A DNA stretch of 63,716 nucleotides, the filler included. It is 15 parts of 15 records of this genome, joined end to end, with 100 filler letters (N's around TTAATTAATTAA, not from the genome) between each part and the next. Parts side by side here need not be neighbours in the genome. Positions count along the whole stretch, not along the records: positions 3,310 to 7,711 come from SRR7504441_60116; 14 more parts are not named here. One strand, 5' to 3'. Shown here piece after piece: positions 1,099 through 54,351 of this stretch. Made by a program: the position numbers and the translations under genes. Position 1 is the stretch's first letter. Each line of letters begins with the position of its first letter. The notes beneath the pieces are model-generated. The model saw only the letters and a list, made by a program, of their open reading frames with translations. It did no database searches and was not told the DNA's origin.

Positions 1099-2763
1099 CT
1101 AAGGTAGAGCCAGTACGGTCGCCACGAGCTTCTTGTAGTTTGGTGTGCCGACGCCGGTCACCGCGTCCCAGCCGGCGGCGGCAGGCCACCCCCCGCTGGC
1201 GTCGCAGCCCTCGCTCGAACCTTGAGTGATGTCATTCCACTGCTCCGCCTCCTTGTAGATTAGAGGATTCAAGAAACCGAGCGTGCTCTTCCCAGCGAGC
1301 AGCCGAGCATCATTGAGCAGTGCGATCACGCCGGCGGCGGTGGGCGAAGCGCACGAGGTGCCGGCCACTCCGGGTTCCGGGATCCTGTTGGAAACCACAG
1401 TGAACCCTTGCGCTTGAGCCGAGATGTCCGGGTACGCTCGACCACTCGTGTTGTAGCCGCGCGAGGCCTTCGGAAGGCCCTTGGCTGTGGTCAGGTACTT
1501 GTGCACGGCCGCAGTCTGGTAGTCCGGCATCGGCCACCGGCTGGAGAAGCCTCCAGAGCTCAGCCCGATCCCGAACTCACTCGAGCTGCCTCCGGTGCCC
1601 CCAACAGCGGTGACCCACGGCGAGGACCCCGGCGTCTCGGAAACAAACTTGTCGTCCTTGCAGTTGGCTCCTTCGTCGCCGGCGGCACAGAGGAGCGATA
1701 TCCCGCGGGCGCCGGCCTTTTGGAACTCGACGTTCATCCTGGTGGCGGCCGGCAGCGACCAGGAGGCTTCATCCTCGCCGTAGCTCGTGGAAAACACCTT
1801 GGGCACCTCCGCGTCGGAGGTGTTGCTCAACATGGCGAGCCAGGTGAGAAACGGCTCGTTCTGGCTGCCCTGGGCGTGGCCTTTGTACCCCCAGAACTCG
1901 GCGGTGATGTTGCCAGCGATTCCAGTGATGGTCTCAATATCGAGCATGGCTTCCACTCCACTGAGTAGCCCGGTGGTCGCGTCGCCCTTGAGCCCCGGGT
2001 CGCCCTTGCCGCAGTGGATCCCACCGCAGAACAGCCCCCAAAACTCGTGCAAGTCAGCCTTGCTGTAATGCTGCCCAATAAAGGCCGTGACAGCCATCCT
2101 GTTGGACTCTGCCGAGCCCTCCACCTCGCCCACGCTGTAGAGCTCGCGGAGGTGCTTGGGCGAGTTCCCGAGCAGCGGCTCCACCAGCCGCTCGGCCGGC
2201 CGCCTGGCCGGCGGGAGGTGCACGGTGGGCGCCACTAAGTCCAGCATCTCGCCCACCGCCGGGGGCACCGAGTAGCTGGCCACCCTGTGAACGGCGGTCC
2301 CGGTGGGCGCGTGCTCGTACAAATGGTACTCGGCCTCAAGCAGCCGCTCGGCCTGCGCCACCGTCGCTCGCACCCGCAGCCAATCGCCGTTGGGGGTCAG
2401 CGGCTCCGGGCTCAGTCCGTGCGTCTCCAGCCAGCCGGTGATCGCCTGCAGGTGGGCCGGGGCCGGGGCGAGCAAGTCTTGAACCTGCTGGTTGGTCATG
2501 TGCTTGCCGTACGATCGGCTCTCCGGGTCGGAGCTGGCCAACAGCCGGCGCTCGAGCTCAGGCCGGTTGCGCTGCCGGACCGCCAGGAGGAGCTCGATCG
2601 GCTGGCCGGCCGGGGAGCGAGCGGACCGGGACCAGCCGTCCGGCAGCTCGGGCCGGGCCGCCTCGAGGGCCACCCGGTCGGCGGTCGTTAGGGCCACCCG
2701 GTCGGCGGCAACGACCGCCATCAGCGTGAGGAGCACCAACAAGGATGATGAGCGCATGGCCAT
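1099..2763 (-). CDS. Sedolisin/tripeptidyl-peptidase I-like S53 serine protease, secreted, intronless
   Basis: Signal peptide; prodomain SDPESRSYGKHMT; catalytic EAMLD, GDEG and GTSCASP; C-terminal Ca-site GWDAVTGVGTP. Confidence 0.95.
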   Translation of the reverse strand: MAMRSSSLLVLLTLMAVVAADRVALTTADRVALEAARPELPDGWSRSARSPAGQPIELLLAVRQRNRPELERRLLASSDPESRSYGKHMTNQQVQDLLAPAPAHLQAITGWLETHGLSPEPLTPNGDWLRVRATVAQAERLLEAEYHLYEHAPTGTAVHRVASYSVPPAVGEMLDLVAPTVHLPPARRPAERLVEPLLGNSPKHLRELYSVGEVEGSAESNRMAVTAFIGQHYSKADLHEFWGLFCGGIHCGKGDPGLKGDATTGLLSGVEAMLDIETITGIAGNITAEFWGYKGHAQGSQNEPFLTWLAMLSNTSDAEVPKVFSTSYGEDEASWSLPAATRMNVEFQKAGARGISLLCAAGDEGANCKDDKFVSETPGSSPWVTAVGGTGGSSSEFGIGLSSGGFSSRWPMPDYQTAAVHKYLTTAKGLPKASRGYNTSGRAYPDISAQAQGFTVVSNRIPEPGVAGTSCASPTAAGVIALLNDARLLAGKSTLGFLNPLIYKEAEQWNDITQGSSEGCDASGGWPAAAGWDAVTGVGTPNYKKLVATVLALP

Positions 2764-3209
2764 TGTTGTTGTTGTTCAAGAGGTCGGCAGCCAAGTTTTT
2801 TTAGGCCCATGTGCCGTCGCAGCCGCGTGAGCAGCGCAACCTCGACGGAGGCCTTGTCCAGGCACCGGAGGCTGCAGCTGAGGAGCCCGTGGAGCGCATC
2901 GGCCATCTGGTGGTCCGCCTCGCTTACTAGGTCCATCTGCTCTTTTGTTCCCTTAAAAGGTTTGATTCTAGTTTGTGTCTGACGAAAACAGTGTGCAACC
3001 ACCTGCTTGTTGGAGGTCACAGCCCGCCCAGCCATTTTGCCCTGACTACTTGCATGCCCCGTGGTGATGCTGAGATTTGAGAACTCACCAGGTTTGGGGA
3101 CAGGGTTGCAGCATCCGAGGCACACTGCCACACTTTGGCAGTCGAAGACTGTTGCCAGTTGGATGCAAGCCTTAGCCGTCTATTTTCACCCTATTTCAAC
3201 ACGGTAGAT

Positions 3210-3309
3210 NNNNNNNNNNNNNNNNNNNNNNNNNNNNNNNNNNNNNNNNNNNNTTAATTAATTAANNNNNNNNNNNNNNNNNNNNNNNNNNNNNNNNNNN
3301 NNNNNNNNN
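3210..3309. other. Artificial contig-joining spacer (first of 14)
   Basis: N44-TTAATTAATTAA-N44 puts stops in all six frames. Identical spacers at 7712-7811, 11504-11603, 16997-17096, 20480-20579, 25846-25945, 30316-30415, 34448-34547, 38550-38649, 42294-42393, 46186-46285, 50983-51082, 54653-54752 and 58331-58430. Confidence 0.98.
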
Positions 3310-4743
3310 CGACTGTCGCTGGTGCTCGAGAATGCTATTCCGTTACTGGTCTCGGTAGCGTGCACTGGATTCCTAACCAACGGTATCCCGCCCGGCCTCT
3401 CTGCCGCGTCTGCCCCTTGAGATCCCTGGCCGGACCGAGTGTCGGGGTCAGGCACGCTGGTGCCGGCGGTCAGCTGGTTTGCGGTGCAGAGCCTCGGGTA
3501 CAAGCTCAGGTAGCAGCTGCCGTTGGCGTCCGTTACGCTAGGCTCAGGTTCATCCCGGCGATGGTTTTGGTCTATTTGCTCACCAAATCGAGCAAGTTTC
3601 TCACAAACCTGGCCAACATGGGCGCCACGCACGACGCCGCCGCCGCGCTCAAGGCCGGACACAGCAGTTCTGTAATTAGAAACTCAGTTAAGTTTTCCGA
3701 GCTTCACAGCCTCAGCGCTGAATGTGGGAGTCTCGTGCTTCTGCCTTGGGGCGGCTCCGCTGTGGTATCCGACTGTGTATACGTACAAGATTTTCTTGAT
3801 TATCACAGACCGGTGTATTCAATTCTACAAGAGCAACAACGTTCTGTTCCTGCTAGACCTGTGCTATGTAATTGATATCGCAATGCTCGTATATATCTGG
3901 TATGCTAGCCTCTGCAGTGCATATCTAGCTCAGTGTGCAGGTACTGCCCCCGGGACCACCAAGTGTTTGAGTGTCTCTTCCTGATGGTCAACGGGCCACT
4001 CGCCTTTGCAGCCGTCATTCTCAACAACGGGATGGTGCTCCACTCCAAGGAGAAAATGGCCTCATGCTTCGTCCACCTCTCGCCTGCAATGCTCTCCTTC
4101 GCGCTCCGCTGGCACGCCACCAAGGCCAGCAGATTTGCGGTTTGTGACTGGCAGCACCCTCTGGGCTGCGACTCTTTCGAACCGTTTGTGGCGTGGCAAC
4201 GGGCGATTGCGCGGTTTTATGGGCCGTGGGTGGTGATTTATTACGTCGTTGTGATGGTGGTCCTGTCCCAACTCCTGCCCTCTTACAACAACCTGGTGAG
4301 ATCCATCTAATCGACCGATTGATTGTTACGTGTGTGCACAGTATGAGTATACAGTGGCTCAACCTGGGAACCAGGCACTGCCTCGACTGGCAGTAAGTTG
4401 ATTGATAACCCTGCAGATGCTCTCCAAGATACACCGGAACACGCTCGTCAACAAACTGGCCTGTTACCTTCCAAATAAGGAAATAACAGTTAACATCAGG
4501 TGTACTGCCTCGGGCACTTTATCATGGGCTCTCTAGTGCTCGGGATCGCTACCCTCCTCTGGGGCTCCTACGAGGCCCACCTGTGCTTCCTGCTCATCCT
4601 CTGCGCCCAGGCAATTGGCATCTTAATTGACACGTTAGTACCAAAATGAGCCGCTGTGTGTAAAGGTGGCGTGGAATGGGAGCGTTGTGTACTTTTACGA
4701 GTTTGCCCCGCGTTACGAGGAGGATCTGCGGCTCCGACTCGGG
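3310..4743 (+). other. GPC1/DUF2838-like glycerophosphocholine acyltransferase domain
   Basis: Spliced peptide has FLLDLCY, NGPLAFAAVILNNGMVLHSKEKMASCFVHLSP, LWGSYEAH and WNG, which match my recollection of the GPC1 family; several hydrophobic segments. Confidence 0.8.
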
Positions 4744-7538
4744 GTCCCGCCTTCTAACTAGCAACCGGCCCTCAGACTTGTCAACAGGTCGGGCTCAAAG
4801 CAGCCAACGAGTCGCTTGAGCCTGACCCGGCGGTGGTTCGGATGATCAAATCAAAGCTGGTGTCATACCCCATAGCAGGCCGCCGACTCAATACAGGTGG
4901 CGCTCCTGCAAAGCCAGCAACTCGACTCGCCCGAAATGATCGACGACCAAGCGCGGATCGAAACTGAGCTCGGTGCCTGGCTTGCTTGAATCGCAGCGGA
5001 ATGACGGTTGGCGCAGGGCTTGACTCGATTAAAGTCAAAATGCTCACCTCGTGGCTTGACACCCAATACGGTGCGTTACTTTCCTCATAAGGAAATCACC
5101 GTCACACAGGTGCCACCCAGCTCGAGCCTCAGGACTGGGCCACCCCAATCGCCGCTGCCCTGGCAGTCGAGCGCACCCGCCGCAGCCCGGCCAGCACAGC
5201 GATGCAAGCGCCGGCCAAGTGGTGTAGTGAGACTTCGCGGCCTCCTGCGGAGCTCTCACGAACACCGATCGACTGGCACAGCTCTCACACGCCGGCCAAC
5301 TGCCCGTCGGTTCCGATGGCCTTCCTGGAGACGGCAGCACGGATGGGCGGGGCTGTGTGCATGGCGGACGACACTGCAGGTGCGCTGACTTACGAGCGAG
5401 CGGCTGTGGCTGCGGTGCTGCTAGCAGACTATCTTGCGGAGAACGAGCATCTATGCCCTGAGAGCGGTCGGATTGGAGTCATGCTGCCTGCAGGTGTTGC
5501 TAGAAGCGGTTGAGATGCTAATGTTTGATGCAGCGGCGGGTGCAACGCTGATGATGCACGGATGCATGCTGGCCAAGAAGACCCCGGTCAACTGCCCGGA
5601 GGAGATTAATTGATTGCGAGCAGGTGATGATTAACTGGACGGTTGGGGCAACGAACATGCGCCATGTGATCAAGAACTCGGGCGTGACGACCATCTTGTC
5701 GTCCGAGGCCTTCTGGCAGCAAGTTGTGGAGAAAGACGACGTCAAGGTGATCAAGGAGATCGTCGAGCCAATGCTGGTGCGCATTCCCTAATTAGACAGT
5801 TCTACGTCCGGTATATTCCCTAATTAGGAAGGTGTTGACAGCTATTCTTTGAGCGGATCAAGGACTCGTTCTTCCTTCTCGACTCTCTCCAGGTGTTGGT
5901 CAGGTTCAAGCTGAATCCGATCTTCAGCTTCCCTCGATACGCTGCCCATCGGTTTGGTCTGGCGGCTGTCCGGCCCGAGGACGACGCTGTCGTGCTCTAC
6001 ACATCAGGTTCGACCGCGGCCCCCAAGGGAGTTCCACTGACGCACGCCAACATCGTGGCGAATGTCGACGGCGTGATGCAGCTGGCTGGGCTCAAAAGCT
6101 CTGACACGCTCTTTGCATGCCTCCCACCGTTCCACTCCTTTGGGTTCACAGTTACCTCAATGCTTCCGACCATCACTGGTGTGCGGGTGCCTGCGATGCG
6201 CCTGGTGTGCTCCTGATTGATGGATTTAGGTGTGCTACTTCCCGGACCCTCTCGCGTATCCTGCAATCGTGCGCTCGATCGTCAAAATGAAGCCGACAAT
6301 CTATCTGGGCACGCCCACATTCCTCAAAGGAGTACTTGAAGCCTCAAGAGGGTCGCCCGAGAGCACCAAGGCTGGGCACTCAGATGCGCTCCGGTCGCTC
6401 CGGCTGTGCGTTACGGGCGCTGAAAAGCTTCCCGAGGCGGTGCGCAACGAGTTCACCCGGCGGCACAACAACGATGGCGTGGTTGAGGGCTACGGAATTA
6501 CTGAGTGCGGGCCGGTGGTCACTGCGGGTGTGCCCGGGGCGATTGCAGTCGGAGTCGGGATTGCGATGCCCAACAACACCAGGTGCAACTAATCGCATAC
6601 ACTAGTAATACTCGTAGTATTACTTTGTGCAATAGTGGTTGATGATTTACACCAGGCTCAAAATTGTGGACATCGACCAGCTCACCCGCTACTCTGTGAT
6701 CCAAGAGTGCCCCGAGGGCCAGCAGGGTGTGATTCTTGTCAACGGGCCCGGAGTCTTCCCCGGATACCTGCACAACCCCGAGGCCACCGCCAGCGCATTC
6801 GTTTGCGACGACAGCGGCGACCGATGGTGATGCGCGTAGCTGGCTGTTCGAGGTTGAGGTAGGTATGACACGGGCGATCTCGGATACCTAACCTCGCAGC
6901 ACACCGACGTCACGGAGCTCAACCCGACCGGGTGACACATTGTGACACGTTGTTTGTGACATTAGTGTGACAGAATGTCGCTCAAGCTCACCGGCCGGCT
7001 CAAGCGCTTTGTCAAGATAGCCGGAGAGATGATTTCGCTCCCCGCAATTGAGGACTCGCTCCGGAAGAAATGGGTTCACGACCCCGGTAATTTGTGGCTC
7101 AGATCAGGCCTAGCCCTCAAATCTGTGGCTGAGAGCGCTCGGTGCAGAGGCCAAGACCGGGCTGCTGGTGGAGGCGCTTGAAACCGACACCGGCGCGTTC
7201 ATTGCCGTGTTTTGCACCTCTGAGATCAATACTGTCGAACCTGAGAGTCCGGAGCCGGTGCTGAGAGCTCGCCCGTCCGCTGAACAGATCGCGCAGTATC
7301 TGCGATCCGAGGGCTTTTCTGCGCTGCAGGTGGCTTGTGGCTGTTATGGCCTGGGATCTATGGCTGAGAGTGCCCGGTGCAGTGCCCGCGAAGAGTGATT
7401 GGGGTAGCGGCGATTCCGGTGCTCAGGACAGCTATTCACTGATTCTAAAAGAGGTGACAGGTGCTCGGGACCGGAAAATTTGACTACAAGCCGCTCAAGA
7501 AGAAGCTGGTCGCGATGCACGAGCAAGGCGAGCTCTAG
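3310..7538 (+). CDS. Predicted multi-exon fusion: GPC1-like membrane acyltransferase + acyl-carrier domain + Aas-type acyl-ACP synthetase; 5'-partial
   Basis: Four GT-AG introns (4744-4787, 4860-4896, 4973-5016, 5071-5109) keep one frame from WNGSVVYFYEFAPRYEEDL through ETELGLDSIKVKMLTSWLD into the ORF starting at 5202. Stop TAG at 7536-7538. Confidence 0.75.
4897..5170 (+). other. Acyl-carrier (phosphopantetheine-attachment) domain split over three exons
   Basis: VALLQSQQLDSPEMIDDQARIETELGLDSIKVKMLTSWLDTQYGATQLEPQDWATP; the Ser of LGLDS is the codon at 5025-5027. Confidence 0.75.
5202..7538 (+). other. AMP-binding adenylation domain resembling the bacterial Aas acyl-ACP synthetase C-terminal module
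   Basis: YTSGSTAAPKGV, LPPFHSFG, GTPTFL, GAEKL, EGYGITECGP, WYDTGDLG, GRLKRFVKIAGEMISL and GTGKFDY. Confidence 0.9.
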
Positions 7539-7540
7539 GG

Positions 7541-7603
7541 CTCCAAGCGTCCAAGCTCCAACCAAGCTCTAGCCAAGCTCTAGCCAAGCTCTATCTAGCC
7601 AAG
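7541..7603. repeat. Short tandem repeat in 3' flank
   Basis: Several ccaagc / ccaagctctag units immediately after the stop codon. Confidence 0.8.
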
Positions 7604-7811
7604 CAATTAGCTCTATTAATTGCGTCACCAACATGCGTGTTCGTGGTACCCCTGTGAGAGATGAAGTCGTGTATTGATTTCATAATCATCTGAGTAGAAA
7701 ACCCTTCATCANNNNNNNNNNNNNNNNNNNNNNNNNNNNNNNNNNNNNNNNNNNNTTAATTAATTAANNNNNNNNNNNNNNNNNNNNNNNNNNNNNNNNN
7801 NNNNNNNNNNN

Positions 7812-8597: not shown

Positions 8598-10028
8598 TCA
8601 ATACGCCAGCGCCCAGCTCTCGGCGGAGCACGTGACCCCGGCGGCCGCGCTGAAGACGGTTGAGGTGCGCTGATCCGCGCTGCCATCAGCTTCGGTCGGC
8701 GCAATCAGTGGTGTGATGACCTTGCCCCCGAGGAACGCCTCAATCACCCCGCCATCCACAAACACTGTGAGAGCCATGCTGGCGCCCAACTGGCTGCTCG
8801 GCAGCGGAGCTCTCTGCACGATAGAGTTCGCACTGGCTGAGCAACAGAGCGAGTGATCAACGTAGAAAGCGCCCGCAGCAAAATCGTACCCGATTTCCGT
8901 GAACTGTTTCTGGTCCGGGCTGGCCAGCGTCCTGAGCCCGGCCTTGCCACTGGTCGGCCACTGGCTGGCGGTGCAGTTCACACGGACTTCAACCTGTGAC
9001 CCACCGGCCAGCGATCCGCCTGCAGATGTGCTGGCCGCCAGCATAGTCGAGTTGCGGAGCACCGCCGTCTCGGGAATCGGTTCTGTCATGAGCTGGCTGC
9101 CCGACACGGAGAGCTCCCGCGGGATGATCAGCGCCCGCCCGCAGCCGGCCGGCATGGTTGGCTCCGACCAGCCCGTGAATCCAAACACCAGACGGCGGGT
9201 GCTTCCACTCTGGATCCACTCAGTTCCTGTCTTGGCTGCGTACCCGTTGCCGTAGTCGAGGATACCCACTTGCTCTGGGGTGAAGCGGGGCGGGTCGCCG
9301 CTGAGGGTGCCCACCCACCACTGGTTGGTCTTGTATAGCGAGCCGATTAGGATCCATTTGTCACCGAGGGGGAAGAGATCGGGGCACTCCATCATGTTGG
9401 CCGACGTATTTTGGGGCTGCCAGACGATGTTCCGGTCCACTTGGCCATACGTGACGTTGGTGGTGTACAGCGAGCCCCGGTCAGTGAAATTGGCCAGCGT
9501 GTCGTCGGCAGCTTCGAACAAGCAGAACTGAGCCCCAACTTCCTTGGAGCCGCAGCCCACCCCGACCCACCACTTGTTGTTGAACTCGAACGCACGCACC
9601 GGGTCCCGGTACCCGGCGTTGATCCGGGCCGGCATCGGGATGGTCGGTCCCCGGTGTTGCCACCGCGTCAACCCGGCGTCCTCCACGGCCGCCGACCCGA
9701 TCGCGCCCTTGCCGGGCCCGCCCATGATTGGCCAGAAGGCGTAGACTCCCGAGGCTGTCGGGCTGACCGAGCCAGTGTCCCCGCCGAAGCCGGTCGATTT
9801 GGTGAAGTCGCCAGCCCAGTGGATAAGGTCCGTTGAGGTCCAGTGGCTCCAGCCGCCCGCGTCTTCCCAGGTGTGCCAGGTGCCGGTCTTGTCGTGAATC
9901 GGCCCCGAAGGGTCGTACACCCCGGGCGAGCGGATCGGGTGATATTTGGGGCAGAAGCTTGAGCTGTCCGCGTGCGCGGCTACGGCCAGCGCAAGGGCGG
10001 CCACGGCGGTCGTCATCAGTGCAGACAT
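8598..10028 (-). CDS. Glycoside hydrolase family 32 (beta-fructofuranosidase/levanase-like), secreted, intronless
   Basis: YDPSG (variant of NDPNG), YRDP and MECPD catalytic motifs; C-terminal VFVDGGVIEAF; signal peptide from the ATG at 10028. Confidence 0.93.
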   Translation of the reverse strand: MSALMTTAVAALALAVAAHADSSSFCPKYHPIRSPGVYDPSGPIHDKTGTWHTWEDAGGWSHWTSTDLIHWAGDFTKSTGFGGDTGSVSPTASGVYAFWPIMGGPGKGAIGSAAVEDAGLTRWQHRGPTIPMPARINAGYRDPVRAFEFNNKWWVGVGCGSKEVGAQFCLFEAADDTLANFTDRGSLYTTNVTYGQVDRNIVWQPQNTSANMMECPDLFPLGDKWILIGSLYKTNQWWVGTLSGDPPRFTPEQVGILDYGNGYAAKTGTEWIQSGSTRRLVFGFTGWSEPTMPAGCGRALIIPRELSVSGSQLMTEPIPETAVLRNSTMLAASTSAGGSLAGGSQVEVRVNCTASQWPTSGKAGLRTLASPDQKQFTEIGYDFAAGAFYVDHSLCCSASANSIVQRAPLPSSQLGASMALTVFVDGGVIEAFLGGKVITPLIAPTEADGSADQRTSTVFSAAAGVTCSAESWALAY

Positions 10029-10233
10029 GGCGAAGAGGTCCAGTGCATAACGGCAACAGTACAAATTGTGAGGCGACGCTTGCGTGGTGTATCGCTTCGT
10101 TGCTTGGCTAATATTACTTGGCTAAGCAAAGCTGGTCAGCTCGCAATACAACATGGCTCTAAAATCTTCCCACGATTTTATTAATGCTCGCGCTTACATG
10201 ATCGAGCGATCTTAGTTACGTAATCTTAACGTA

Positions 10234-11959: not shown

Positions 11960-12255
11960 TCTGTGCCTGAACCGCTAACAAAGCTAAAAACAGTTGCATC
12001 GTTGCCTTCAAGGCTGGTTGCACACCCGAGAAGACCGATTACGTAGATACATGGTGAACTAACGAACCATGTTGAACGTTCATAATAAAAGTCTAATCTA
12101 GAAAATCAATGGCGCGTGGACCGACCCTCCTGCTCCGGTCCTCGGGGTGCACGCGCCAGCGGTCCCGACGCGCCCCACTACGGTAGCATCCCGGCCCTGG
12201 CCAGCTTCCGATCCCTGCTAGATCCCTGCCCTCAAGACGTTGGGGGTTGCCTAGA

Positions 12256-13404
12256 ATGCAGAGCGGCGTAGTCCGGCCGGGGCAGGTGGCCGCGACCAAG
12301 GCCCTTGTGCAGCTCGCTTCTCGGCGGACCGAGCTGGAGGAGGCCACCGAGGCGCAGGCCAAGGCTGTGGCCGCCCGGAACCGAGTGGCCCTGAGCGAGC
12401 GTCACGCGGACGGCCTGGAAACCCTGGTGCGCCGACTGGAGGCCCGAGTTGCCGCCTTGCCCGGAGAGCCGGCCGCACCGCAGCCGGATGAGTCGTTGCT
12501 CGCGGCGGTCCGACGGGCGGCCGAGGACGAGCGGGACGAGATTCGGCGGCGGCTGGCGGTGTGCGGGTGGGGCTGGGCCGGCCTGAGAGGGTCGGTCCGA
12601 GCGCCGGATCAGCTGGAACCGCTCGACGAGATCCGCATGCGCGTACACCGGCTGCTCAGCATGCCCGACCGGCCGAGCCCGGAGCATGCGGTCCGGGCGG
12701 CGGTGCTTGCCGAGGAGTTTGCCTGCGCGGACGGGTCGGCGCGTCTTCAGCAGGGCCGGGAGAAGCATGCGAGCACGACCAGACAGATCAAGGAAGCGTT
12801 AAGTCAGGTGAGCAGGCCAGCTCGGGAGGCGCAGCTAGCCCGGGAGGCGCGCGAGCGGGCCCGGGCGGACAAGATCAAGGCCCGAGCGGAGGCCAAGGCC
12901 CAACGGGAGACGGCCCGCAAGCGCAGAGAAGAGCAGGCCAGGGAACAAGTGGCCGAGATGGGCGACAGCCGGCTGCAGATCGGGCTTCAGGCGGCGAGGC
13001 TGAAGGACGCGCTGCGTGAGATACGGGCGGCGAGGGAGCAGTCAGACCAGGCTGCAGCGCAGATCGAGGAGCAGCTGGATCGGCTGAGGCGAGAGCTGAG
13101 TGGGAAGCAAGAGGCCCGGGACAACCTGGAGGCCGAGGTGGCGCGATGGGGCCAAAAGAAGGTGGACGATCAGGCCGGGCTGACCAAACTGCAGCTCAAG
13201 TATGACAAGCTCGAACAAGGCTACAGCACAGTGCTTGAGGCTGTGCGTGAGGCTGCATCCACCACGGGTGAGAGCGAGCAGTTGTCGCCTATGGAGATAC
13301 TGCAGCGGATCACAGGGAAGCTGGATGAGAATAGAAAGGCGATCGAGAAGCACAAGGAGCAAATGACCAATCTCTTGATGGATGACGTCATTGGTGATAT
13401 CTGA
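12256..13404 (+). CDS. Hypothetical coiled-coil protein (start uncertain)
   Basis: About 380-aa ORF, E/R/A/Q-rich heptads, followed by AT-rich 3' flank. Confidence 0.7.
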   Translation: MQSGVVRPGQVAATKALVQLASRRTELEEATEAQAKAVAARNRVALSERHADGLETLVRRLEARVAALPGEPAAPQPDESLLAAVRRAAEDERDEIRRRLAVCGWGWAGLRGSVRAPDQLEPLDEIRMRVHRLLSMPDRPSPEHAVRAAVLAEEFACADGSARLQQGREKHASTTRQIKEALSQVSRPAREAQLAREARERARADKIKARAEAKAQRETARKRREEQAREQVAEMGDSRLQIGLQAARLKDALREIRAAREQSDQAAAQIEEQLDRLRRELSGKQEARDNLEAEVARWGQKKVDDQAGLTKLQLKYDKLEQGYSTVLEAVREAASTTGESEQLSPMEILQRITGKLDENRKAIEKHKEQMTNLLMDDVIGDI

Positions 13405-13751: not shown

Positions 13752-16700
13752 TTATTTACGGTAATCAAAGGTTAAGTGATCGACAACGACCTCTAATTGC
13801 TGTAGACTTGGCGTCACGGGCGGGCTCTCACATTCGCACCAAATTTCAGTTTTACTCTCCCTAGCTTCTGACTGGTGGTCCCTGCCGTAGATCCCCATTC
13901 GGCCCACCTTTGCTGCTGGGGCTATGCCCTTCTCCCCAAGCACGTCAGTCAATGCTACGACGGCGACCTGTGAGGCTTGAATCCAATCAGACCATGCGGT
14001 GTCACTGGCATCAAGCCGTGGAGGTGGATCTGACGCAGCTCGGCGTTGGACCTCCTTGGCCTTGAGCTGTTTTACAATCTTGGTCAAACTGTCTGTGTGC
14101 TTCCTGGCGGCCTCCGCTTCGGCGGTAGCCAGGTTGTAGACCACGATGCCCAAAAGAGAGATGCAGCTGATCCAGACAAAATAGGCAATCGTATCTGTGC
14201 TGTGGATATTAGTGATGGAGCAAACGTTAGAGACACTTCGATACTTAGCTGCGTTCCACAGTTCGGTCGGGCTATTGGCTGATAAATTATCGGGATTGGG
14301 CAGAAGTGCTGTGTCAAAAAAGAGCTCGAGCGAATACTTTTCGCTGAGATACTTCCGACTGTCGATCTTCAGAAGGTATGCGCCTGAGGGAATGGCACCA
14401 CCTGAGGCGTAGCAGCAGTCCAGAAGTGTCTGCTGATAGGGTGTTATAACTACCTGCACATTATACGTGACACCATAATATTGTTCTAAATTGGAGGTTA
14501 GAAGTTCGAGGAGCCAAATGATTGCAGTGGCAATGCCGATCTTCAGTGCGAGCCAGCGATGTCTTCTATGATGCCAACTATCAAAGTCATTCCAAGATAT
14601 GCGACGGTCAAGGCGCAGGATGACCACCATATAAATACCCAGCAATAGTTTCCAACCTGCATAAATGACTGCAAGGACCTTGTTGCAATCTGCACCGTCG
14701 TCTGGAAATACCCAACTGACTGCAGTAGATTGCATGTCGATTGTGTCTCCTGATAATAGGATGGAGAGCTCTGCTGCACCCGCATAGCCATAATAGAAGC
14801 CAAGCAGATAAAACACGCGGCGACAATTGCCCAGAGGAGGGTCCAGACGTGAGCAAAACCCTCCAAACTCCTGCGAAGTAAGCAGCTTCTGGAATAGGAC
14901 AAGCAAAGAAAGGGACATGACAAAAAACAGCGCACAGGAAACATAACCCACAGCGTTCTCAGCAGTGTCCCAGGCAGAAAATGGACCATGAAACAGGCTA
15001 TCTTGGGTTGGCGTTTGCATTTCTTTGAGTAGCATGAGGTACACGCAGCTGGCTGCAAAGATCCCGACGATCCGGCTCTCCGTGACCCGATCAGCTAGAG
15101 CAAAGATGAGTAGGGGCAGCAGAAATCCAAAGTAAATCACCCGGGGTAAGAGGACAAACGCATAAATATACCATTCCATCCGAACTCCATGTGACTCGAC
15201 ACTCTCCATCAAATATTCCGAGTGCGCTAGCCAACTAACCAATACCGTAAATGTAGGCAGCCCATCGAGTGTCACCACCCAGCACCCAGCTACTGCAGCC
15301 AGCCAGAGCTTTTGGCGCACGACTCCCCACGTGCCGCGGCGCTTTTTTAGGAGAGGAGGAGAAAGGCACATTGTATGATTAAAAAGACCGAGAAGAGGCC
15401 AAATGTTGACCACATTGAGTTCCATTCCAGGCCGCCAGATGTCGATCGCATCGTAACCACCCGTGACACTGAGCGCAAATTCCCTCATGTACTTAAACAA
15501 TCCCATATAGATGACGTCATAGACTTGCCTGAAGCCACTTTTTGACAGGGTTATGAGCACAAGCGAATCCCTGAAATCGATCTTATGAACACTTACTGCC
15601 TGCTCAGCGACATCTTGAATAGCCTCCGTTGCTTCCTTCTTCAACAAGTCACTCGCATCGGAATCAATGATGCACGCCAGCATCTTTCCGAGTCTTTTGG
15701 GCGCAGCTAAGGAAGAACGCAGTTGCCAGAGAGGACTTTTAGCAGCCGTGAATAAGTAGAGCCAAGTAACCTCTTCTTTGCGGGAAACTCGGGATGCCAC
15801 CTCGACTTCCCCCACAATAAGCGAAGCTCGCAGCAGACTACTGCCAAATTCAACCCCTTCATCAGGACAAGTGACCTTGGCTTTGCACGTCTCTTGGTCT
15901 CGGATGGCGGCGATTGCTCGTCGAAGCTGGTCTTCGTCTAAATCTGCTTTCGAACGCCGAAGCAGATGCTCGTCTATATTCTCTAGTAGGTAGTAAGCCC
16001 AGTTCACCTCTGAAGTGAAGTGCTGTTCTAAAATTTGTGCGACCGCCAGGCCATCTAAGCGAAGCTGCAGCGCACTGACAGTACATATAAGCTCTTCATG
16101 CCGTGCCATTCGTGCCTCGACCGAGGGCACTGTCATACACAGACCATCGACTGCGCCATTCCAGCCAATCAAGCGGACAGTAGGTCCTGAATTCATCTCA
16201 TGCGTCGCAGAATAATTATCTAGAGTTTTTGAACTAGGGATCTGTAGTTTCAGGCGGACACACTGCTCATTTTCATCTGATCGTGACCGCACGTCGAGCC
16301 CTTCGCTCTTCGTGGGACTGTCTACCATCTGGAGGAACGCTCGGTACATTTTCTTGATGAACAGTTCGAATAGCTCGAGATTGCACTGAAGCTCGAACGA
16401 GCGGCAGCTGACGGAGGAGTCGATCCCTACAAAGTGAGCAACAGGTGACATCACACGAATGACCATCATCTTTTGGTCCAACATTTCGGAGCTGCAATTC
16501 TCCTCTCTGAGATCTTGGAGCCCCTTGGGCGAATGCACCAGCAAATCACAACCGAAGTGACCATGAAATGCGATCTCAAGAACGTCAGTGGCGTTGCTAG
16601 CTGGAACGAGCCACTCACGGCAGAGCTGCCCAACCAGTATCGCCTTGGAAAGCTGATGAATTTGCTTGATGGTGAACTGTCCTACCTTCTTGTGATCTTT

Positions 16701-16996
16701 CAGACCATCGTCGATATCCTCCCCAATTCCTTTGGCCAGGCTCAGAACTGTTTCCACATGAGCTGATGCTAGATCAACTATAATCTTCTCATCCGGGACC
16801 AGCTCGCCCTGATCGGTTGAGGCAAACAAATCGAAAGAGATGCGCTTCAGATTCCAGGGTAGCAACCTGAGCGTGCCTTCCGTGCACTGCAGCGTGATGA
16901 CTCCAACGATCCGACCAGGAATAGATAGAAAGGGTATTTCCCCGTGTGCAGCACTCTCGAGGTGGCATCGGAGTCCTTCAGAAATAATCTTGATGC
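13752..16996 (-). CDS. Large uncharacterised multi-pass membrane protein, 5'-partial, no introns needed
   Basis: Frame stays open to the contig edge (more than 1080 aa); soluble N-half and many hydrophobic segments in the C-half; no motif recognised. Confidence 0.8.
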
Positions 16997-17515
16997 NNNN
17001 NNNNNNNNNNNNNNNNNNNNNNNNNNNNNNNNNNNNNNNNTTAATTAATTAANNNNNNNNNNNNNNNNNNNNNNNNNNNNNNNNNNNNNNNNNNNNGACC
17101 GCGGGTCCCAACCGCCTGCACCTCCAAGACTTTTTCGACGGTGCAGACTCTGTGTGCTTGATTGATCACATTTACGACTATTATATGCTTGCAGTGCTAG
17201 CCAGTAGCCACCAGAAGCGCCGCATCGGTCTCGCCGCAGATCACAAAATCGGCTCTCGCTCGAGGCTCGAGCTGTAAGCTCGAACTCCCCGCTCCCGTCA
17301 ACGTCTCATCGGCCTTGAGCATCGCCGCATCGCATGCATACGTGCATGCCTCATGGGCCTCATCCTGTTTATGAACTCGTCTATACTGCCATCCCAGCCG
17401 CTATGGGGTACCACTCACGTGCACGGTGTTCCAAGTGCTCGGTGCGTCGGTGAAGATCAGGCTGCCGTTGTTTCATATTTGGCCACTGTCGGGGTGTGCG
17501 GGCACCAAACGAAGC

Positions 17516-22296: not shown

Positions 22297-25200
22297 ATGA
22301 CCGACTCGTTGTTCCGGCTGCAGCATGCCGAGGTGGACCTGCACAAGGTGGACCTGCCGAACGAGCGGCTGGCGGTGACCCCGGACTGTGCCGTGCCGCT
22401 CACCGGTGACAGGCGGTGGCCTCGCTTCACGTGGTGCCGACGAAGCGGTGCACCGAGATTCGGCTGCACACGGGCGAGGGCGGCAGCAAGGGCGGGCCTG
22501 GCTGGCACATTGATAGAGTTGTGGTGGGGGGCACTGTCCTGGCCGGCAAGCAGTATGAGTTCACCAAACAACGATCCAGCTGGGGCACCGTACCATTCTC
22601 CGCTGACTCTGACGAAGCAGCAGTCGGGCGCTTTGAGAAGGAGATCAGCGCCAGTGACCAGGGCAACCTCAAAATTGAGCTGCCGGAGAGCGTCTGGCAC
22701 ATTGAGCAGCAGCCCGAGGGTTCAGAATCTGACCAGGTGTGGCCTCGCACCCGGAGCGTGATGTGCGCTGAGCGTCTCCTTTGGTTCTCAGGCGACATAC
22801 AAGCCATTTTCAATCGAAATAAGCTACAGCGTGCAATGCCCTGCACCTGGTGTCAACTTCAACCACACACCGGGCCGTGAACGTGAGATTAGTCTAGCGC
22901 AGTGCCCTCTGCGCCTGTTGATGCGGCGCTGGACAGATATGTGGATCGAGTTTGCACCAGCCACAGCTCGTCAGTGGCTACCATGCCTAGACGTACCCAA
23001 AGAGGTGTGACTGCCACTGCTCCGCATCACCTGAACTGCCCAACTCGTGCAGACATTTACACTGGACCTGCATATTCGAGTTCCGTCGGGCCTAGTTGCT
23101 GTAGCCTGTGGCGATTTCGAGGACCAGGCCCGAGATCTTCACCATTCGCAGACAATCTTCCATTACCATCTCAGGTCACCAGCACCAGCAATGAGCATGA
23201 TCTTTGCTATCGGCCCATTCGAAATCATCCCTGACAAGTTCTCCGCACGCATCACATACTTTGGCCTGCCGGGCACCCGGACTTCGGATCTAAGCATCTC
23301 AGTGGAGCAGGTCTTCCAGATGATGGCTTGCTCTGAGGAATATCTTGGGGTACGATACCCTCACGAGCACTACAAGATAGTTTTCCTGCCGTTGGAGACG
23401 CAGGACGAATCAGTTCGGTATCTGAGGGGCTTTGGAGCGGGCATTGCCGTACTTCCGGCATCATTACAGCATGGAAGTGACAGTGAGTTTCTCTCCCTTC
23501 CTATGATTTTAGCCTGGGCAAACTTCTTCAGGGCTCTGCCTTAAATCTGCCCCTTTTGTCCTCCCTGCCATTTGTACCCCAAGACTACCCCCAACATATC
23601 TTGGAATTATATGGCTGTAATGCTGCTTTGTGTACAGATATTGACCAAACTATCAATACTCGCAGTGTGCTGGCACTTGCTTTCGCATTTTCATGGGTTT
23701 GTTCCTCTGTAACAATCAAGCGCTGGAAAGATCTGTGGGTCCTTACGGGACTTGCTGGATTCTTGCAGGAGATGTACCTTAGGGCCACCCTCGGGCACAA
23801 CTGCCATCTGCACCGAATGCACAAAACCCGACTTTGGGTACGCCAGCACGACTCCAACGCCATCCCGCTTACTAGTGAAGGTAAGGGCGATGAATTTTCA
23901 CATCCTTCTGAGCTCTTCAATCAAGTGGCATTCGCAAAAGCAGGTCTTGTGTTTTACATGCTTGAGCGAAGAGCTGGACCGTCGCAGTTTCAGAGCTTTG
24001 CACAGGCATTCTTATCAGACAAGAAGCGGGACAGTTTAAAAACGGATAATGTGATTAAAATGTTCAAAAAGGCAGTTGGTAGTGAGAGCCATGCCAACAG
24101 CATTGAGACCTTCTTTGATCTGTGGGTCTTTGGAGGTGGAAGCCCTACTTACCGTGTTGGCTTCACTTTCAACAAGAGCACATTCCTGATTGATATAGCA
24201 CTGGAACAGCATTCCAAACTGTGGTCTCCTCCGTTCGAGAAGCTCGAGGAGGACCCTAGCTTGAAGATACGCGTTCATGAAGAAGCTGGAGTTTATGATC
24301 ATGTGGTACCAATACCGGTGAAGACGCAAGCAGATGCAATTAAACCAATCAGCGTAGCATGTCACTCTCGTAAGAAAAGTGCCAGGCGCCAGCGAATGGA
24401 AAAGAGTGGAGAACGAGCAATAGTTGATGAGGGTGAGCCCCCTATCAATTGGCTTCGAGTGGATCCTGAAATGGAATGGATATGTGAGGTTGATTTTGTC
24501 CAGCCGTTACGAATGTGGGTAGAACAGCTACAGAAGGATGAGGATGTTACTGCACAAATAGAGGCCGCACGAAACATATGGCACTTGCAACCAGATGCAG
24601 CGATTCCCGTGCTTGCTAGTACCCTGGAAAACGAGAAATTGTTCTATGTAGTCAGAGCTGAAGCAGCTTTATCTTTGGGGAAGATTCCAACGGACAAGTC
24701 TGATGCCGAAGGGCTTCACGTTTTGATCCGATATTTCAAAAAGAAGTTCTACAGCCCCAATACAGGCCAGCCTAAACCCAACGATTTTACAAATCTGATA
24801 GATTACAACGTGAAAAAGGCGATGGTGACTGCTGTTGGTCTTGCATGCGACACTTTTGGAGCCTCCGCCCGTTTGGCAATTCAATTCTTGTTCGAATTGA
24901 TCGACCAAAATGACAACTCAGATAATGACTATGACGGAAGCCATTACCTGGTCATTTTGATCCGTGCCATTGGCAATCTTTGTCCTGAACGGCAAGAAGA
25001 TGCGGCTCGGATGGCCCATCAGATTCATTGCCACCTTAGGAAAGACACTCTGATCCCTAGTTATCAGCGAATCGTTTCAGCCGAGTGCTTGGAGGCTCTG
25101 TGTGATATGATGCTCAATAAGTTTGCGGGTACCAGCTCCCAAGTGTTCAAAGACTACATTGCTTCCAATTTCTATCCTCTAAAGCAGGCTGCTTGGCGTT

Positions 25201-25845
25201 CCTTGCTGCGATTAAGTCATCAAGACTCCTCACTGATTGGTTTCATTTTTGACCAGGCTGTTGTCACTACCCCACCAGACATTCAGTTGCTGGCATGGCT
25301 AGCTGGTGCAAATGCCGAGGTAAAGTTGCAGGACAATTTCCGGCACTCTGAAGAGGGTGACAGACGGATGCAAAAGTTGTGGAAAGTCATGACAGATCAC
25401 ATGTGTACTCCAATGACTAGGCTGTGGGCAATCTCATTGTACAACCAAATTCTGCAAGTGCACAGACCCATGTCTGTGGATCAGATTCAAAATCGCCTCA
25501 GCTTTCAAAGTAAAGATGCAGCCAAGAAGAACCCCCCAAAGCTAGAATTGAGCTTTGCGCGCAAAATAGAGATCAAAGCTCCCAGTTCGTATTCCATAAA
25601 AAAGCGCGAACTTGTGACTAGCCCCACCAAAGACGTACCTCCAGCAAAGAAGTCAAAACATTCACCTACTCCTTCCACCAATAGCATCGTCCGAAGCTCA
25701 AATGGTACAGGATCTGGCAGCAATCAGCACGTGCAGATGCAGATTGAACCAGTCTTCGTGCCGCGCCCCCTGTTGAAGGCGCGTGCAAAACGAATGATCT
25801 TGCTCAAGAGGCAAAAGGAGGTGTGGGGAGTTACTTTGAACGAGT
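22297..25845 (+). CDS. TAF2: Transcription initiation factor TFIID subunit 2, 3'-partial
   Basis: M1-aminopeptidase-like fold without HEXXH; GLVAVACGD, FAIGPFE, YLGVRYP, WLRVDPEMEW, EQLQKDEDVTAQIEAA, LFYVVRAEAA, PKPNDF, NDNSDNDYDGSHY and IPSYQRIV. Confidence 0.92.
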
Positions 25846-25945
25846 NNNNNNNNNNNNNNNNNNNNNNNNNNNNNNNNNNNNNNNNNNNNTTAATTAATTA
25901 ANNNNNNNNNNNNNNNNNNNNNNNNNNNNNNNNNNNNNNNNNNNN

Positions 25946-30730: not shown

Positions 30731-33065
30731 ATGGCCGGTGGGAAGCGAGGCTCCTCTAGGAGTAGGCAGGGCTCCACCAGGTCTGGTCCGGATCGGTCAG
30801 CGGCCGGGCCGGACAACACAGTGGCGCTGGTGCTGGCGCTGGTTGGGTTGCTGCTCGGGCTGCTGCTCGGACTGCACCTGCAGAGCCAGACCAATCTGCT
30901 GCCCAGGGCTGGCCCCCCGCCAGTGCGGGAGCACACCCCGACAGCCAACCTGGACCCGATCAAACCGGCCAGTCGGCCCAGCGATGCGGCAAAGGGGTGG
31001 GGGCGCCCAGATAGGATGCCGGCCCCTCCGGCCAAAGACGACGAGAGGGCCACAGCTATGGGCCGCGCCGAGATTGAGGCCGCAGCTCGAGGCGGCGGGG
31101 CGAGCTCTGCTGAGCAGCAGGAGCCTGAGTCGGAGGAGGCGCAGCAATTTAACCTGCTGGTGGAGCAGGGTTTCCGTAAGCTCGGAAAGGACGAGTTTGC
31201 GGACGCGAGCACTGCATTCGGCGAGGCGGTAAAGCTCCAGCCCGACTCGGGACAAGTGCAGTTCAACCTCGGAACAGCACTGTTTGAGCTGTCCAAGCAA
31301 GAACAGTCGGAAGAAAAGAAGGACGAGCTCTCAGATAAGGCGCTGCTGGCCTTTGAGGCAGCAGCCAACCACATCGCCCCTGAAGAGGGAGGCGAGCAGT
31401 TCCAAATCTCTAAAGTTTCCGCACTGTACAATGCTGGTACGCGCGGGCTGTAGCAGTAGCCGGGTGACACTTGTCTGCAGGGTTGCTGGCTGCCATGATG
31501 GAGCAATATGAGCGCGCCAAGGGGACATTTCAGCGCGCAAACCGGCTTGACCCCACGCATGCCGGTCCTGCCATACAGGGTGTCCTGTTGTGACAGTGCA
31601 TGCAGGTGTAAAGGAGCTTCTCCATCAAGTGAAAGAGTCTATGGGACAACTTGACAAAGACCAAAAGGAAGAGCAGGAGGCATACAAGAGAATGTCTGAT
31701 AATGCAGGACCAAAGAGATTCAAGGAGGGTGCGACTGTGTACGCTCGGCTGCAGCACGGGTGGGAACCGGCTACGGTGATCGAGAACGACCTTGAAACGC
31801 ATGCATACCGGATGAAATTACAGGATGGGCAGGAGATATATGCGCCCTACGATCTAGACAAGTATGTGAGAAAGAGCATGCCGACCCAGGCCGAGGAGGC
31901 TCAGATGTTCCGAGAGGCAGCTCAGGAGCGGGAGGAACGGAAGCAAAAGGAGCGGGAGGAGCAGAAGGAAGTCCCCAAGAATCAACTGAATCCGGAAACA
32001 GATTCAAAGATGGAGGCTGCGTCACTTGGTCTTGAGCCTGGTGTGGAATGCGATACAGATGAACATGGCGGTCAGTGGTGCTGGAAGAATGCTGATTACA
32101 AAGCGCAGACTCCTGAGGGTGTTGTATGCACTGAGATGTTTGATTTGAACTCAAGCGACACCTGGCTGGAAACGATGACAGCTATCGTTGAGCAGATATT
32201 TGTCTGTGGGTTTGTGTATATCGCCCCTGGGCTGGTCTCAGATTCCTGGATCAGAGAGGCTAACCAGTACGTTAGCCAGGCCTGGAGAGATGAAGAATTT
32301 CTGGCCGAAAACGCTCGTCCAATTCACAATGGAGGCCGCCGTGTTGACATTTTCATGCCGCTTGACTCAGGCCCGTTCAATCGCACTATGTTCAATTCAT
32401 TTGACACAAAGCTGTTTGAAATCTTGGACGCCGGACCAACAGGAGGAGGTGAAATATCGATGGTGGTGGTAATCAATGCCATGCCAAGCGTTGATGGTAA
32501 GGCAGAGCAGGCGGACAGGCTGCTTCCGAGCGCTCACTGGAGAAAAGAAATCCCCCAAACCTTTAGGGAGTGGCAAGTTGGGGAGGAACAGATCTGGCAC
32601 GATGATAGCATGCCCGGGTTCAAGGAGAAGCAGCTGTTTATCGTTGTCGCTCTGCATGACACCGAGAGTGGGTTCATTGGTGTCCAGCCTGGGTGTTTCC
32701 CCGATAAATTTCATGGTGTCAACTATGTTGATAACCCTACTGGCTCAGATGACAAGATGAATGACAAAATAGAAGACGAAAAGCCATGTTTCAACTGGGC
32801 AGGGTATGTTCCACGGAAGGTTAAGGCAGGTACGGTCATGATTCACCAGGCAAGACTGCGCCACCGAGGGTTTCCCCAGATTGTGCATGACACCCGCTTC
32901 ATGCTGAGCATGGATGTTGCGCCAAATTTGGACCAACACATGCCACACTTTGAGAAAACATGGCACGGGGTTGGGAAAAATGGAATGTTAAATGCAGAAC
33001 GACGGAAGCTATTTGCCGAAAGGCTCGAGAATGCTCGACAAGAAATCATAGCAAAGCTAGACTAG
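30731..33065 (+). CDS. Type II membrane protein with TPR repeats, a small beta-barrel-like domain and a PhyH-like 2OG-Fe(II) dioxygenase domain
   Basis: N-terminal hydrophobic anchor; TPR AVKLQPDSGQVQFNLGTAL; two short introns near 31438-31606; QIWHDD...GTVMIHQARLRHRG...RFML (HxD...H). Confidence 0.7.
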
Positions 33066-54200: not shown

Positions 54201-54351
54201 TTACCACGGGCTGATGCTTGGGGTTGTCCAACCTGCAGCCGATGATCAAACATCTGGCGGGGTCATCAAGGTAAGCGTAAGCTCGCCTGGGCTGACATCT
54301 TCTGCTTTGGAGATAGATTCTAGTTACGATTGCGCCGAAATGAGCTTGTGA
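51244..54351 (+). CDS. Glycoside hydrolase family 2 beta-galactosidase-like, secreted, one intron (52275-52319)
   Basis: GWYRK, WWYDGGGLYRDV, NHQDFGGVG, WRTAHN, RDRNHPSIIIWSLCNE, SSET and WTGWDYKGEP; Cys-rich PAN/apple-like insert in the N-terminal part. Confidence 0.95.

Follow-up and report, generated by a model that had tools for sequence, protein, structure and literature searches.

The window analysed here, a stretch of 63,716 nucleotides (nt), is a chain of 15 short contigs joined by N44–TTAATTAATTAA–N44 spacers, and the gene under study, predicted to link a GPC1-like acyltransferase to a carrier domain and an acyl-activating synthetase, sits on the 4.4-kb contig at positions 3310-7711. 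The spacers, found at 3210-3309, at 7712-7811 and at 12 further sites, place stops in all frames, so features are not to be read across contig joins. The source assembly is eukaryotic, with introns and with genes such as a TAF2-like open reading frame (ORF) on other contigs of the window. The contig at 3310-7711 very probably holds one gene with about 20 short introns that encodes a protein of about 1000-1080 residues with three modules. In all likelihood these modules come in the order of a DUF2838/GPC1 multi-pass membrane acyltransferase, a flexible tether with a phosphopantetheine-binding (PP-binding) carrier, and an Aas-type fatty-acid adenylating enzyme. A single gene running from GPC1 through the carrier to the synthetase had been proposed in a preliminary description of this DNA, and both the domain order and the colinearity with fused relatives bear the proposal out.

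Pfam searches of stop-to-stop pieces place the DUF2838 and AMP-binding domains on the same strand of this contig, namely the forward (+) strand, to which all features of the gene belong. DUF2838 (PF10998) scores 53.8 bits in 3676-3981 and 34.5 bits in 3909-4307, with a cut-off of 25.2, and the two halves are linked across an intron at 3900-3940. An exhaustive phmmer search with the GPC1 exon at 3942-4295 gave 621 GPC1-family matches, and most of the 150 matches listed are 200-460 amino acids (aa) long; when longer proteins were searched by word index, the GPC1 exon gave no match. All 87 aligned GPC1 rows, the window model among them, share one Cys and two His, whose codons lie at 3862-3864 for the Cys (DLCY, of the form D-x-C-Y) and at 4041-4043 and 4074-4076 for the two His. 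Several hydrophobic stretches of at least 19 residues in the first 350 residues of the model fit a multi-pass membrane protein, and the AlphaFold model of the relative P0141 shows a helical bundle at residues 72-344 with a predicted local distance difference test (pLDDT) score mostly above 80. The protein differs from a stand-alone, single-domain GPC1/GPCAT enzyme in that the gene model continues into carrier and AMP-binding modules.

The adenylation module is recognised as AMP-binding (PF00501) with 70.3 bits in 5839-6213 and 59.4 bits in 6230-6589, and its core motifs YTSGSTAAPKG (P-loop), GYGITE, YDTGDLG, GRLKRFVKIAGEM and GTGK are present in the spliced model. For the three full-length fused relatives scanned with NCBIfam, the top four models are without exception of the acyl-ACP type, ACP being acyl carrier protein (PRK08633, PRK06814, PRK06334 and PRK08043, the last two being Aas-family models). 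The acyl-ACP models score about 241-395 bits versus about 175-181 for the best acyl-coenzyme A (acyl-CoA) ligase model; since the models describe other architectures, none of these scores comes near its equivalog cut-off. The same four acyl-ACP models are on top for the window exon 5842-6186, while for the exon 6230-6580 two acyl-CoA ligase models outrank PRK06334. Neither the window pieces nor the fused relatives have a PlsC domain (PF01553) by Pfam, DUF2838 taking its place, and no condensation, thioesterase or reductase family is found in the window pieces, P0141, P0194 or P0275.

The fused relatives are few. A Pfam scan of ten of the 150 listed phmmer matches (the eight longest and two of the top-scoring) revealed DUF2838, PP-binding and AMP-binding together in two of them: P0141 (991 aa), which is Pelomyxa schiedti KAH3761595.1, and P0194 (1032 aa), a JGI metagenome protein. 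Another search contributed P0275 (1015 aa, with all three domains), a Trinity transcript of Mastigella eilhardi, and P0382/P0276, a JGI model and an MMETSP transcript of Bigelowiella natans; P0275 and P0276 are thus transcript-derived. The fused protist proteins and P0194 share the three modules and their order with the window model and align colinearly with it over about 910 residues, with 33-34% identity in the GPC1 part (81-91 of 238-265 residues) and 39-43% in the synthetase; they are uncharacterised, and the window gene is split by about 20 introns. Two Logan proteins, both listing a longest contig of 5002 nt, may be the halves of another fused, intron-bearing gene: P0125 (336 aa) covers the GPC1 N-terminal part and runs into junk after VNK, and P0009 (675 aa) is one uninterrupted ORF from the GPC1 C-terminal helix through the carrier to the synthetase. 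A search of the ESM Atlas with P0141 returned generic AMP-binding and PP-binding clusters and none with DUF2838, which says little as the resource covers just clusters of at least 50 members. The matches of the adenylation exon begin with a transcript fragment of Rhizamoeba saxonica (64% identity) and continue with many bacterial proteins of about 885 aa.

The architecture had been put forward as one not known to be described. Full-text searches turned up no paper in which AMP-binding, acyl-ACP synthetase or phosphopantetheine is connected with GPCAT, Gpc1 or DUF2838; fused forms might be listed in the tree of the GPCAT paper or in the ATGY alignment figures. The architecture is not unique to the window, as it occurs in Pelomyxa, Mastigella, Bigelowiella and a metagenome; a survey for the same domain order, proposed in advance, yielded a few other protists, none characterised. 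Judged from the sequences, the predicted architecture is real and present in public records, and the window gene is a new, divergent member of an undescribed family.

The gene model was built with a purpose-written protein-to-genome spliced aligner that takes the fused relatives as guide proteins. Over about 910 residues the contig follows P0141 (score 1234, protein residues 78-989) and P0194 (score 1207) colinearly; when GT donors alone are allowed, colinearity holds for each of four guides, with scores of 1060-1107. The spliced model is stop-free up to the TAG at 7536-7538. Eight introns are secure; they measure 36-73 nt and mostly begin with GTG and end with CAG, a look that the four introns of the linker share, and GC content is 0.59 in exons and 0.49 in introns. 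As a control, two blind searches were made for stop-free GT-AG paths in which introns were merely penalised. Such paths were easily found and ran mostly through wrong frames, so that a stop-free spliced frame is by itself no evidence, and support was taken from homology and composition; the blind paths were dropped as gene models. An assembly chimera or a decaying pseudogene, in which the fusion would have no product, is scarcely credible: the contig is short, the assembly is fragmented and several intron borders have unusual donors, but an architecture found independently in other taxa is not what a chimera would yield, no stop interrupts the model, its catalytic motifs are all intact, and codon-position GC is maintained in every module.

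The region between the GPC1 domain and the synthetase decides whether the contig carries one gene. The ORF with the GPC1-like sequence (4639-4761) ends in frame at the TAG 4759-4761, and this stop lies, as the preliminary description had stated and as is confirmed by reading the sequence, inside a 44-nt GT-AG intron at 4744-4787. This junction intron is chosen by one of four guides and a 32-nt form, 4744-4775, whose acceptor is also in frame, by three of four. Three more GT-AG introns of 37-44 nt are present in the sequence as claimed and keep the frame free of stops into the adenylation domain. The first, at 4860-4896 (37 nt), is supported by guide P0141 at the lower intron penalty and by none of four guides at the higher one; the second, at 4973-5016 (44 nt, phase 1), splits ELG/LDS and is found with P0141 (lower penalty) and P0382 (higher penalty); the third, at 5071-5109 (39 nt, phase 1), is found with two of two guides at the lower penalty and two of four at the higher. 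With the four linker introns removed, the protein reads ...YEEDLRLRLG/VGLKAANESLEPDPAVVRMIKSKL/VALLQSQQLDSPEMIDDQARIETEL-G-LDSIKVKMLTSWLDTQYG/ATQLEPQDW..., where slashes mark exon junctions, and the junction aligns with ...YE(K/E)DL.L(K/R)LG... of the fused relatives. The linker exon 4788-4859 encodes VGLKAANESLEPDPAVVRMIKSKL, which includes the start of carrier helix 1 and the ATG at 4842; the carrier exon 4897-4972 encodes VALLQSQQLDSPEMIDDQARIETEL and the first base of a Gly; and the carrier exon 5017-5070 holds the attachment motif (G)LDSIKVKMLTSWLDTQYG, with ELGLDSI straddling the 4972/5017 junction. The linker exons have high, low and high GC at codon positions 1, 2 and 3, like the conserved exons (for example 0.77/0.28/0.76 versus 0.59/0.43/0.71), and the values for exon 4788-4859 are 0.67/0.38/0.71. 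Splicing at the linker introns in the source organism is what we infer from these features.

Evidence for a carrier in the linker comes from several directions. A hidden Markov model (HMM) built from 60 bacterial relatives, of which the members tested (P0005, P0018, P0341) pass PF00550, gives the spliced linker 25.2 bits, and the best of 500 shuffled linkers reaches 5.3. The carrier had been said to be hidden in the unspliced ORFs, which agrees with this result and with the blank Pfam result on the unspliced pieces. Run on unspliced frames, the HMM finds three colinear pieces (model positions 8-17 at 4827-4856, 24-40 at 4921-4974 and 40-59 at 5016-5075) whose ends coincide with the proposed junctions; exon 5017-5070 alone scores 11.8 bits and the two weaker pieces 1.3 and -3.3 bits. 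The carrier Ser, in an L-D-S-I motif, is encoded at 5025-5027 and is a Ser in 63 of 64 aligned rows, the remaining row having a gap. A profile of five eukaryotic linker segments picks out acyl carrier proteins of solved structure (best E 4e-7), in register at the Ser, and all 60 matches shown for this profile are carrier proteins or holders of carrier domains. PF00550 is passed by three of the four fused relatives tested (P0141, P0194 and P0275, with 22.2-23.8 bits and a cut-off of 20.8). The AlphaFold model of P0141 (mean pLDDT 85.7) has a confident helical carrier domain at 363-435 with low-confidence tethers, 346-354 and 443-445, on either side. Ahead of the Ser, the eukaryotic relatives have N, Q or T where bacteria have D, and the window keeps D-S-I. 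From this profile and alignment evidence, the linker is a predicted acyl-carrier domain with its attachment Ser in ELGLDSI.

Several points weigh against the single spliced gene, and they are best considered together with the possibility of two adjacent genes or isoforms, that is, a GPC1 protein ending at TAG 4761 with 4744-4787 retained and an ACP-synthetase transcript starting from ATG 4842 or 5202. Under the higher intron penalty, three of four guides take one 72-nt intron at 4897-4968, a candidate that skips one carrier exon; it was rejected and the four-intron linker preferred because the carrier HMM scores 10.4 bits on the former and 25.2 on the latter. Pairwise spliced alignment of the junction by itself rises only modestly above shuffles, with z = 3.6, 2.8, 5.2, 8.7, -0.7 and 5.1 for six guides, of which four beat all 100 shuffles and two do not, and Pfam has no match in any unspliced linker piece. 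Three or four introns of the model require GC donors or very short lengths, and homology to the N-termini of the relatives is too weak to set the 5' exon borders, so the 5' end is tentative. Without splicing, the GPC1 ORF ends in ...YEEDLRLRLGVPPSN, the last residues before the stop being ...RLGVPPSN, which is the ordinary length of a stand-alone GPC1 (as in the tails of P0121 and P0122), and ATG 4842 follows downstream in frame with the linker exon. On the other hand, the gap between that stop and the next start would be just 80 nt, and the linker exon sequence before 4842 can be aligned with the linkers of fused relatives and shows the GC pattern of coding sequence. In Pelomyxa, Mastigella, Bigelowiella and P0009 one ORF or transcript runs across this junction, and in the tree the GPC1 part lies with those of fused proteins. 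Two genes or isoforms are accordingly regarded as improbable, and the single fused gene is retained. Retention of the junction intron would leave a GPC1 protein with a tail of about stand-alone length, and a stand-alone isoform made in this way is pure speculation.

The carrier and synthetase have counterparts in bacteria. Bacterial tri-domain proteins of about 885 aa consist of PlsC (PF01553), PP-binding (PF00550) and AMP-binding (PF00501) domains, hence the same acyltransferase-carrier-synthetase order as the window gene, and occur in Chlamydiota, Planctomycetota, Lentisphaerota, Bdellovibrionota and others, some with an added major facilitator superfamily (MFS) domain (about 1285 aa). At least 593 loci of this PlsC–ACP–synthetase family were confirmed in species genomes, and no biochemical study of the bacterial form was found in the literature. 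The cassette is homologous, with 199 of 512 synthetase residues identical between the window gene and the bacterial P0005, whereas the bacterial acyltransferase is PlsC-type and unrelated to DUF2838 and the bacterial genes have no introns. Environmental Chlamydiota are particularly rich in these bacterial tri-domain genes; one such holder is a Rhabdochlamydiaceae symbiont of Dictyostelium (L040).

Per-module trees, which had been suggested beforehand, place the two parts of the gene apart, with carrier and synthetase within the bacterial tri-domain family and the GPC1 part within eukaryotic GPC1. For carrier plus synthetase, two quick trees were made, with support from the Shimodaira–Hasegawa-like approximate likelihood ratio test (SH-aLRT) only. 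The seven eukaryotic rows form one clade (SH-aLRT 100 and 99), in which the window sequence adjoins Rhizamoeba (88 and 96). This clade nests among bacterial tri-domain proteins in a 55-row clade (support 98) whose internal order is a polytomy and which is rich in Chlamydiota and also includes Bdellovibrionota, Lentisphaerota, Verrucomicrobiota and a Pirellula; LplT-Aas forms and adenylation domains of nonribosomal peptide synthetases (NRPS) lie outside that nesting. Inside eukaryotic GPC1, a single clade of seven tips (support 95) takes in the GPC1 parts of the five fused proteins. These trees support an adenylation module of bacterial origin joined to a eukaryotic GPC1 domain, and the simplest reading would be one transfer of a PlsC–ACP–synthetase gene into a eukaryote followed by replacement of PlsC with the resident GPC1. 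The gene had been described as a bacterial ACP-synthetase grafted onto a GPC1 fold. The joining of a bacterial adenylation module to eukaryotic GPC1 stands, but carrier and synthetase were not newly combined, as the closest bacterial relatives, of about 885 aa, already hold both in one polypeptide. Since these relatives have the PlsC–PP-binding–AMP-binding order, the event would amount to an acyltransferase swap on an existing ACP-synthetase cassette.

Aas serves as the model for a proposed mechanism. The adenylation module would convert free fatty acid and ATP to acyl-AMP, after which it would join the acyl group in thioester linkage to the phosphopantetheine arm that the built-in carrier holds. 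The arm could then swing to the cytosol-facing site of the GPC1 domain, where the acyl group would be passed, probably via the conserved Cys/His pair, to a glycerophospho acceptor, either glycerophosphocholine or a lysophospholipid. The outcome would be re-acylation without free acyl-CoA. Acyl-CoA and an acyl-pantetheine thioester present, in chemical terms, the same donor group. Pantetheinylation of the carrier, the acyl route, the acceptor and CoA-independence are all points that we infer. Given the fusion, we lean modestly towards such a carrier-channelled route operating, and the explanation that best accounts for the data overall, a fused gene with carrier-channelled re-acylation and a PlsC-to-GPC1 swap, is reasonably probable.

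Known systems provide parts of this scheme. As predicted for the window gene, Aas couples an acyltransferase and an acyl-ACP synthetase for the transfer of activated fatty acid to lysophospholipid, and in Escherichia coli the acyl-ACP made by the synthetase is described as channelled only to the enzyme's own acyltransferase domain (PMC6167442, accessible text). Aas differs in having a separate ACP and a PlsC-type acyltransferase where the window gene has a built-in carrier and a GPC1-type one. The yeast and plant Gpc1/GPCAT proteins (PF10998) have DUF2838, the invariant Cys/His and the multi-pass membrane nature in common with the window gene; according to the accessible text of PMC5122774, Gpc1 is stand-alone, has 'only one defined domain', uses acyl-CoA, and prokaryotic homologues were not found, whereas the window gene has a C-terminal carrier and adenylation extension. 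For the superfamily of TMEM164, AIG1, GPC1, YwaF and YpjA (ATGY), a core of six transmembrane helices with a nucleophile/His dyad has been proposed, that of GPC1 being Cys/His (bioRxiv 10.1101/2022.07.06.498872), and the window gene keeps the invariant Cys and His. TMEM164 takes its acyl group from phosphatidylcholine, and the accessible part of the same preprint mentions no fusion of an ATGY member to a carrier or adenylation domain. ElbD of Myxococcus xanthus can be likened to the window gene by description only: fatty-acid-activating, ACP and glycerolipid acyltransferase-like domains are joined in one chain, and the ACP and activating activities have been confirmed in vitro according to a review (PMC9131029, accessible text). 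ElbD departs from the window gene in being soluble, in its additional FAR1-like reductase domain and in the AGPAT type of its acyltransferase. The likeness to NRPS lies in the logic only, and NRPS adenylation domains served as the tree outgroup.

The main rival explanation accepts the fused gene and takes the carrier as vestigial or as a structural tether, so that the adenylation module would make acyl-CoA or hand over acyl-AMP, with CoA-dependent channelling to GPC1. We know of no GPC1 enzyme that takes a carrier-bound acyl group. In addition, the PP-binding scores of the fused relatives are just above the cut-off (22-24 versus 20.8 bits), with no PP-binding match at E ≤ 0.01 for P0276 by Pfam, their attachment motifs have N, Q or T before the Ser instead of D, and the characterised GPC1 enzymes use acyl-CoA (PMC5122774, accessible text). 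Nevertheless, the Ser is kept in six of six eukaryotic sequences as well as in nearly all aligned rows, the window retains D-S-I, the adenylation module sorts largely with the acyl-ACP synthetases instead of the acyl-CoA ligases, and the chlamydial AasC, of the Aas family, is reported to yield acyl-ACP, not acyl-CoA (PMC6167442, accessible text). We consider this CoA-dependent alternative unlikely and keep the carrier-channelled route as the preferred reading.

On a wider scale, it is possible, and put forward tentatively, that a small, patchy eukaryotic family, found in Archamoebae, in a lineage near Rhizamoeba, in Bigelowiella and in the source organism, carries out CoA-independent re-acylation by delivering the acyl group on a built-in arm to a GPC1-type Cys/His acyltransferase. 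Such a family could have arisen by transfer from a subclade dominated by the Planctomycetota–Verrucomicrobiota–Chlamydiota (PVC) group, which includes amoeba-associated chlamydiae, with subsequent displacement of the acyltransferase by a non-homologous one. If the mechanism holds, GPC1-family acyltransferases, known as users of acyl-CoA only, could accept a carrier-bound thioester, and the protein would be a natural construct for probing the Cys/His mechanism proposed for GPC1. It would also be the equivalent in a eukaryote of Aas salvage in bacteria, bringing exogenous fatty acid into membrane lipid while bypassing the acyl-CoA pool, and a clear case of horizontal transfer with non-homologous module replacement in which the acyltransferase–carrier–synthetase order is kept. 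For annotation, it matters that records of the kind of the Pelomyxa KAH3761595.1 are labelled just 'AMP-binding protein', and that ORF-based gene calling splits or truncates such genes, as with P0125 and P0009.

The remaining exons and introns are less uniform in their support. The start codon is probably missing from the contig, the frame being open to the contig edge. Tentative 5' exons lie at 3310-3382, 3422-3509 and 3548-3666, separated by candidate introns at 3383-3421, 3510-3547 and 3667-3709; codon-position GC periodicity shifts frame along 3310-3670, and a stop-free join is possible. A 5' intron at 3672-3692 was discarded as out of frame. The start border of the GPC1 module may be 3693, 3702 or 3710, and the GPC1 exons are 3710-3899, 3941-4295, 4342-4374 (or to 4392), 4417-4458, 4500-4610 (or to 4637) and 4666-4743. 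The GT-AG introns at 3900-3940 (41 nt, phase 2, within DUF2838) and 4296-4341 (46 nt) are each found with three of four guides when GT donors only are allowed and with two of two at the lower penalty.

Three further introns of the GPC1 part, 4375-4416, 4459-4499 and 4611-4665, fit the residue spacing of the relatives with GC donors only. The first is either 4375-4416 (GC-AG, 42 nt) or 4393-4416 (GT-AG, 24 nt), both stop-free, so that its donor is uncertain; the GC donor at 4375 gives back the 17-18 residue spacing of the relatives. The intron at 4459-4499 (41 nt) is a probable GC-AG intron whose donor yields VNKL/VYCLGHF, matching VNKLLYCMMH of P0141, and a GT donor at 4463 was rejected with the next exon falling out of frame. 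The last of the three is either 4611-4665 (GC-AG, 55 nt) or 4638-4665 (GT-AG, 28 nt), again with an uncertain donor. Both keep the AWNG motif, and only 4611-4665 matches the spacing of 12 residues from His to Trp (of WNG) in P0141, P0194, P0121 and P0122. An intron at 4634-4682, taken by four of four guides with GT donors only, was set aside for deleting the conserved WNG motif. GC-AG introns may be frequent in this organism, with 4375-4416, 4459-4499, 4611-4665 and possibly 6899-6973 as candidates.

Downstream of the linker, the end of the carrier, the tether and the adenylation module are encoded by exons 5110-5493, 5534-5586, 5624-5776, 5842-6186, 6230-6582 and 6656-6826, and the later part of the adenylation module by exons 6863-6931, 6974-7086, 7148-7329, 7383-7418 and 7461-7535. 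The introns at 5494-5533, 5587-5623, 6187-6229, 6583-6655 and 6827-6862 are found with four of four guides, that at 5777-5841 with three of four, and those at 6932-6973, 7087-7147, 7330-7382 and 7419-7460 with one or two of four. At the stop TAG 7536-7538, the C-terminus aligns to the ends of the relatives.

Two pairs of introns within this gene share sequence, 4463-4490 with 5075-5102 (82% identity) and 7121-7152 with 7356-7387 (84% identity). Each shared motif occurs at just those two sites in the window, with none expected by chance, which suggests intron duplication or a small introner-like element. Directly 3' of the stop, at 7551-7593, a tandem 11-nt unit (CCAAGCTCTAG-like) is present in three overlapping 21-nt copies, presumably within the 3' untranslated region.

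On the other contigs of the window, the ORFs at 13755-17048 (-), 31551-33062 (+) and 12187-13401 (+) have no Pfam match at E ≤ 1e-5. Six long ORFs, at 1102-2775 (-), 8601-10121 (-), 23487-25898 (+), 35302-38481 (-), 44005-45189 (-) and 52306-54348 (+), belong, in that order, to sedolisin/kumamolisin-like, GH32, TAF2-like, ABC ATPase-like, MatE and GH2 families.

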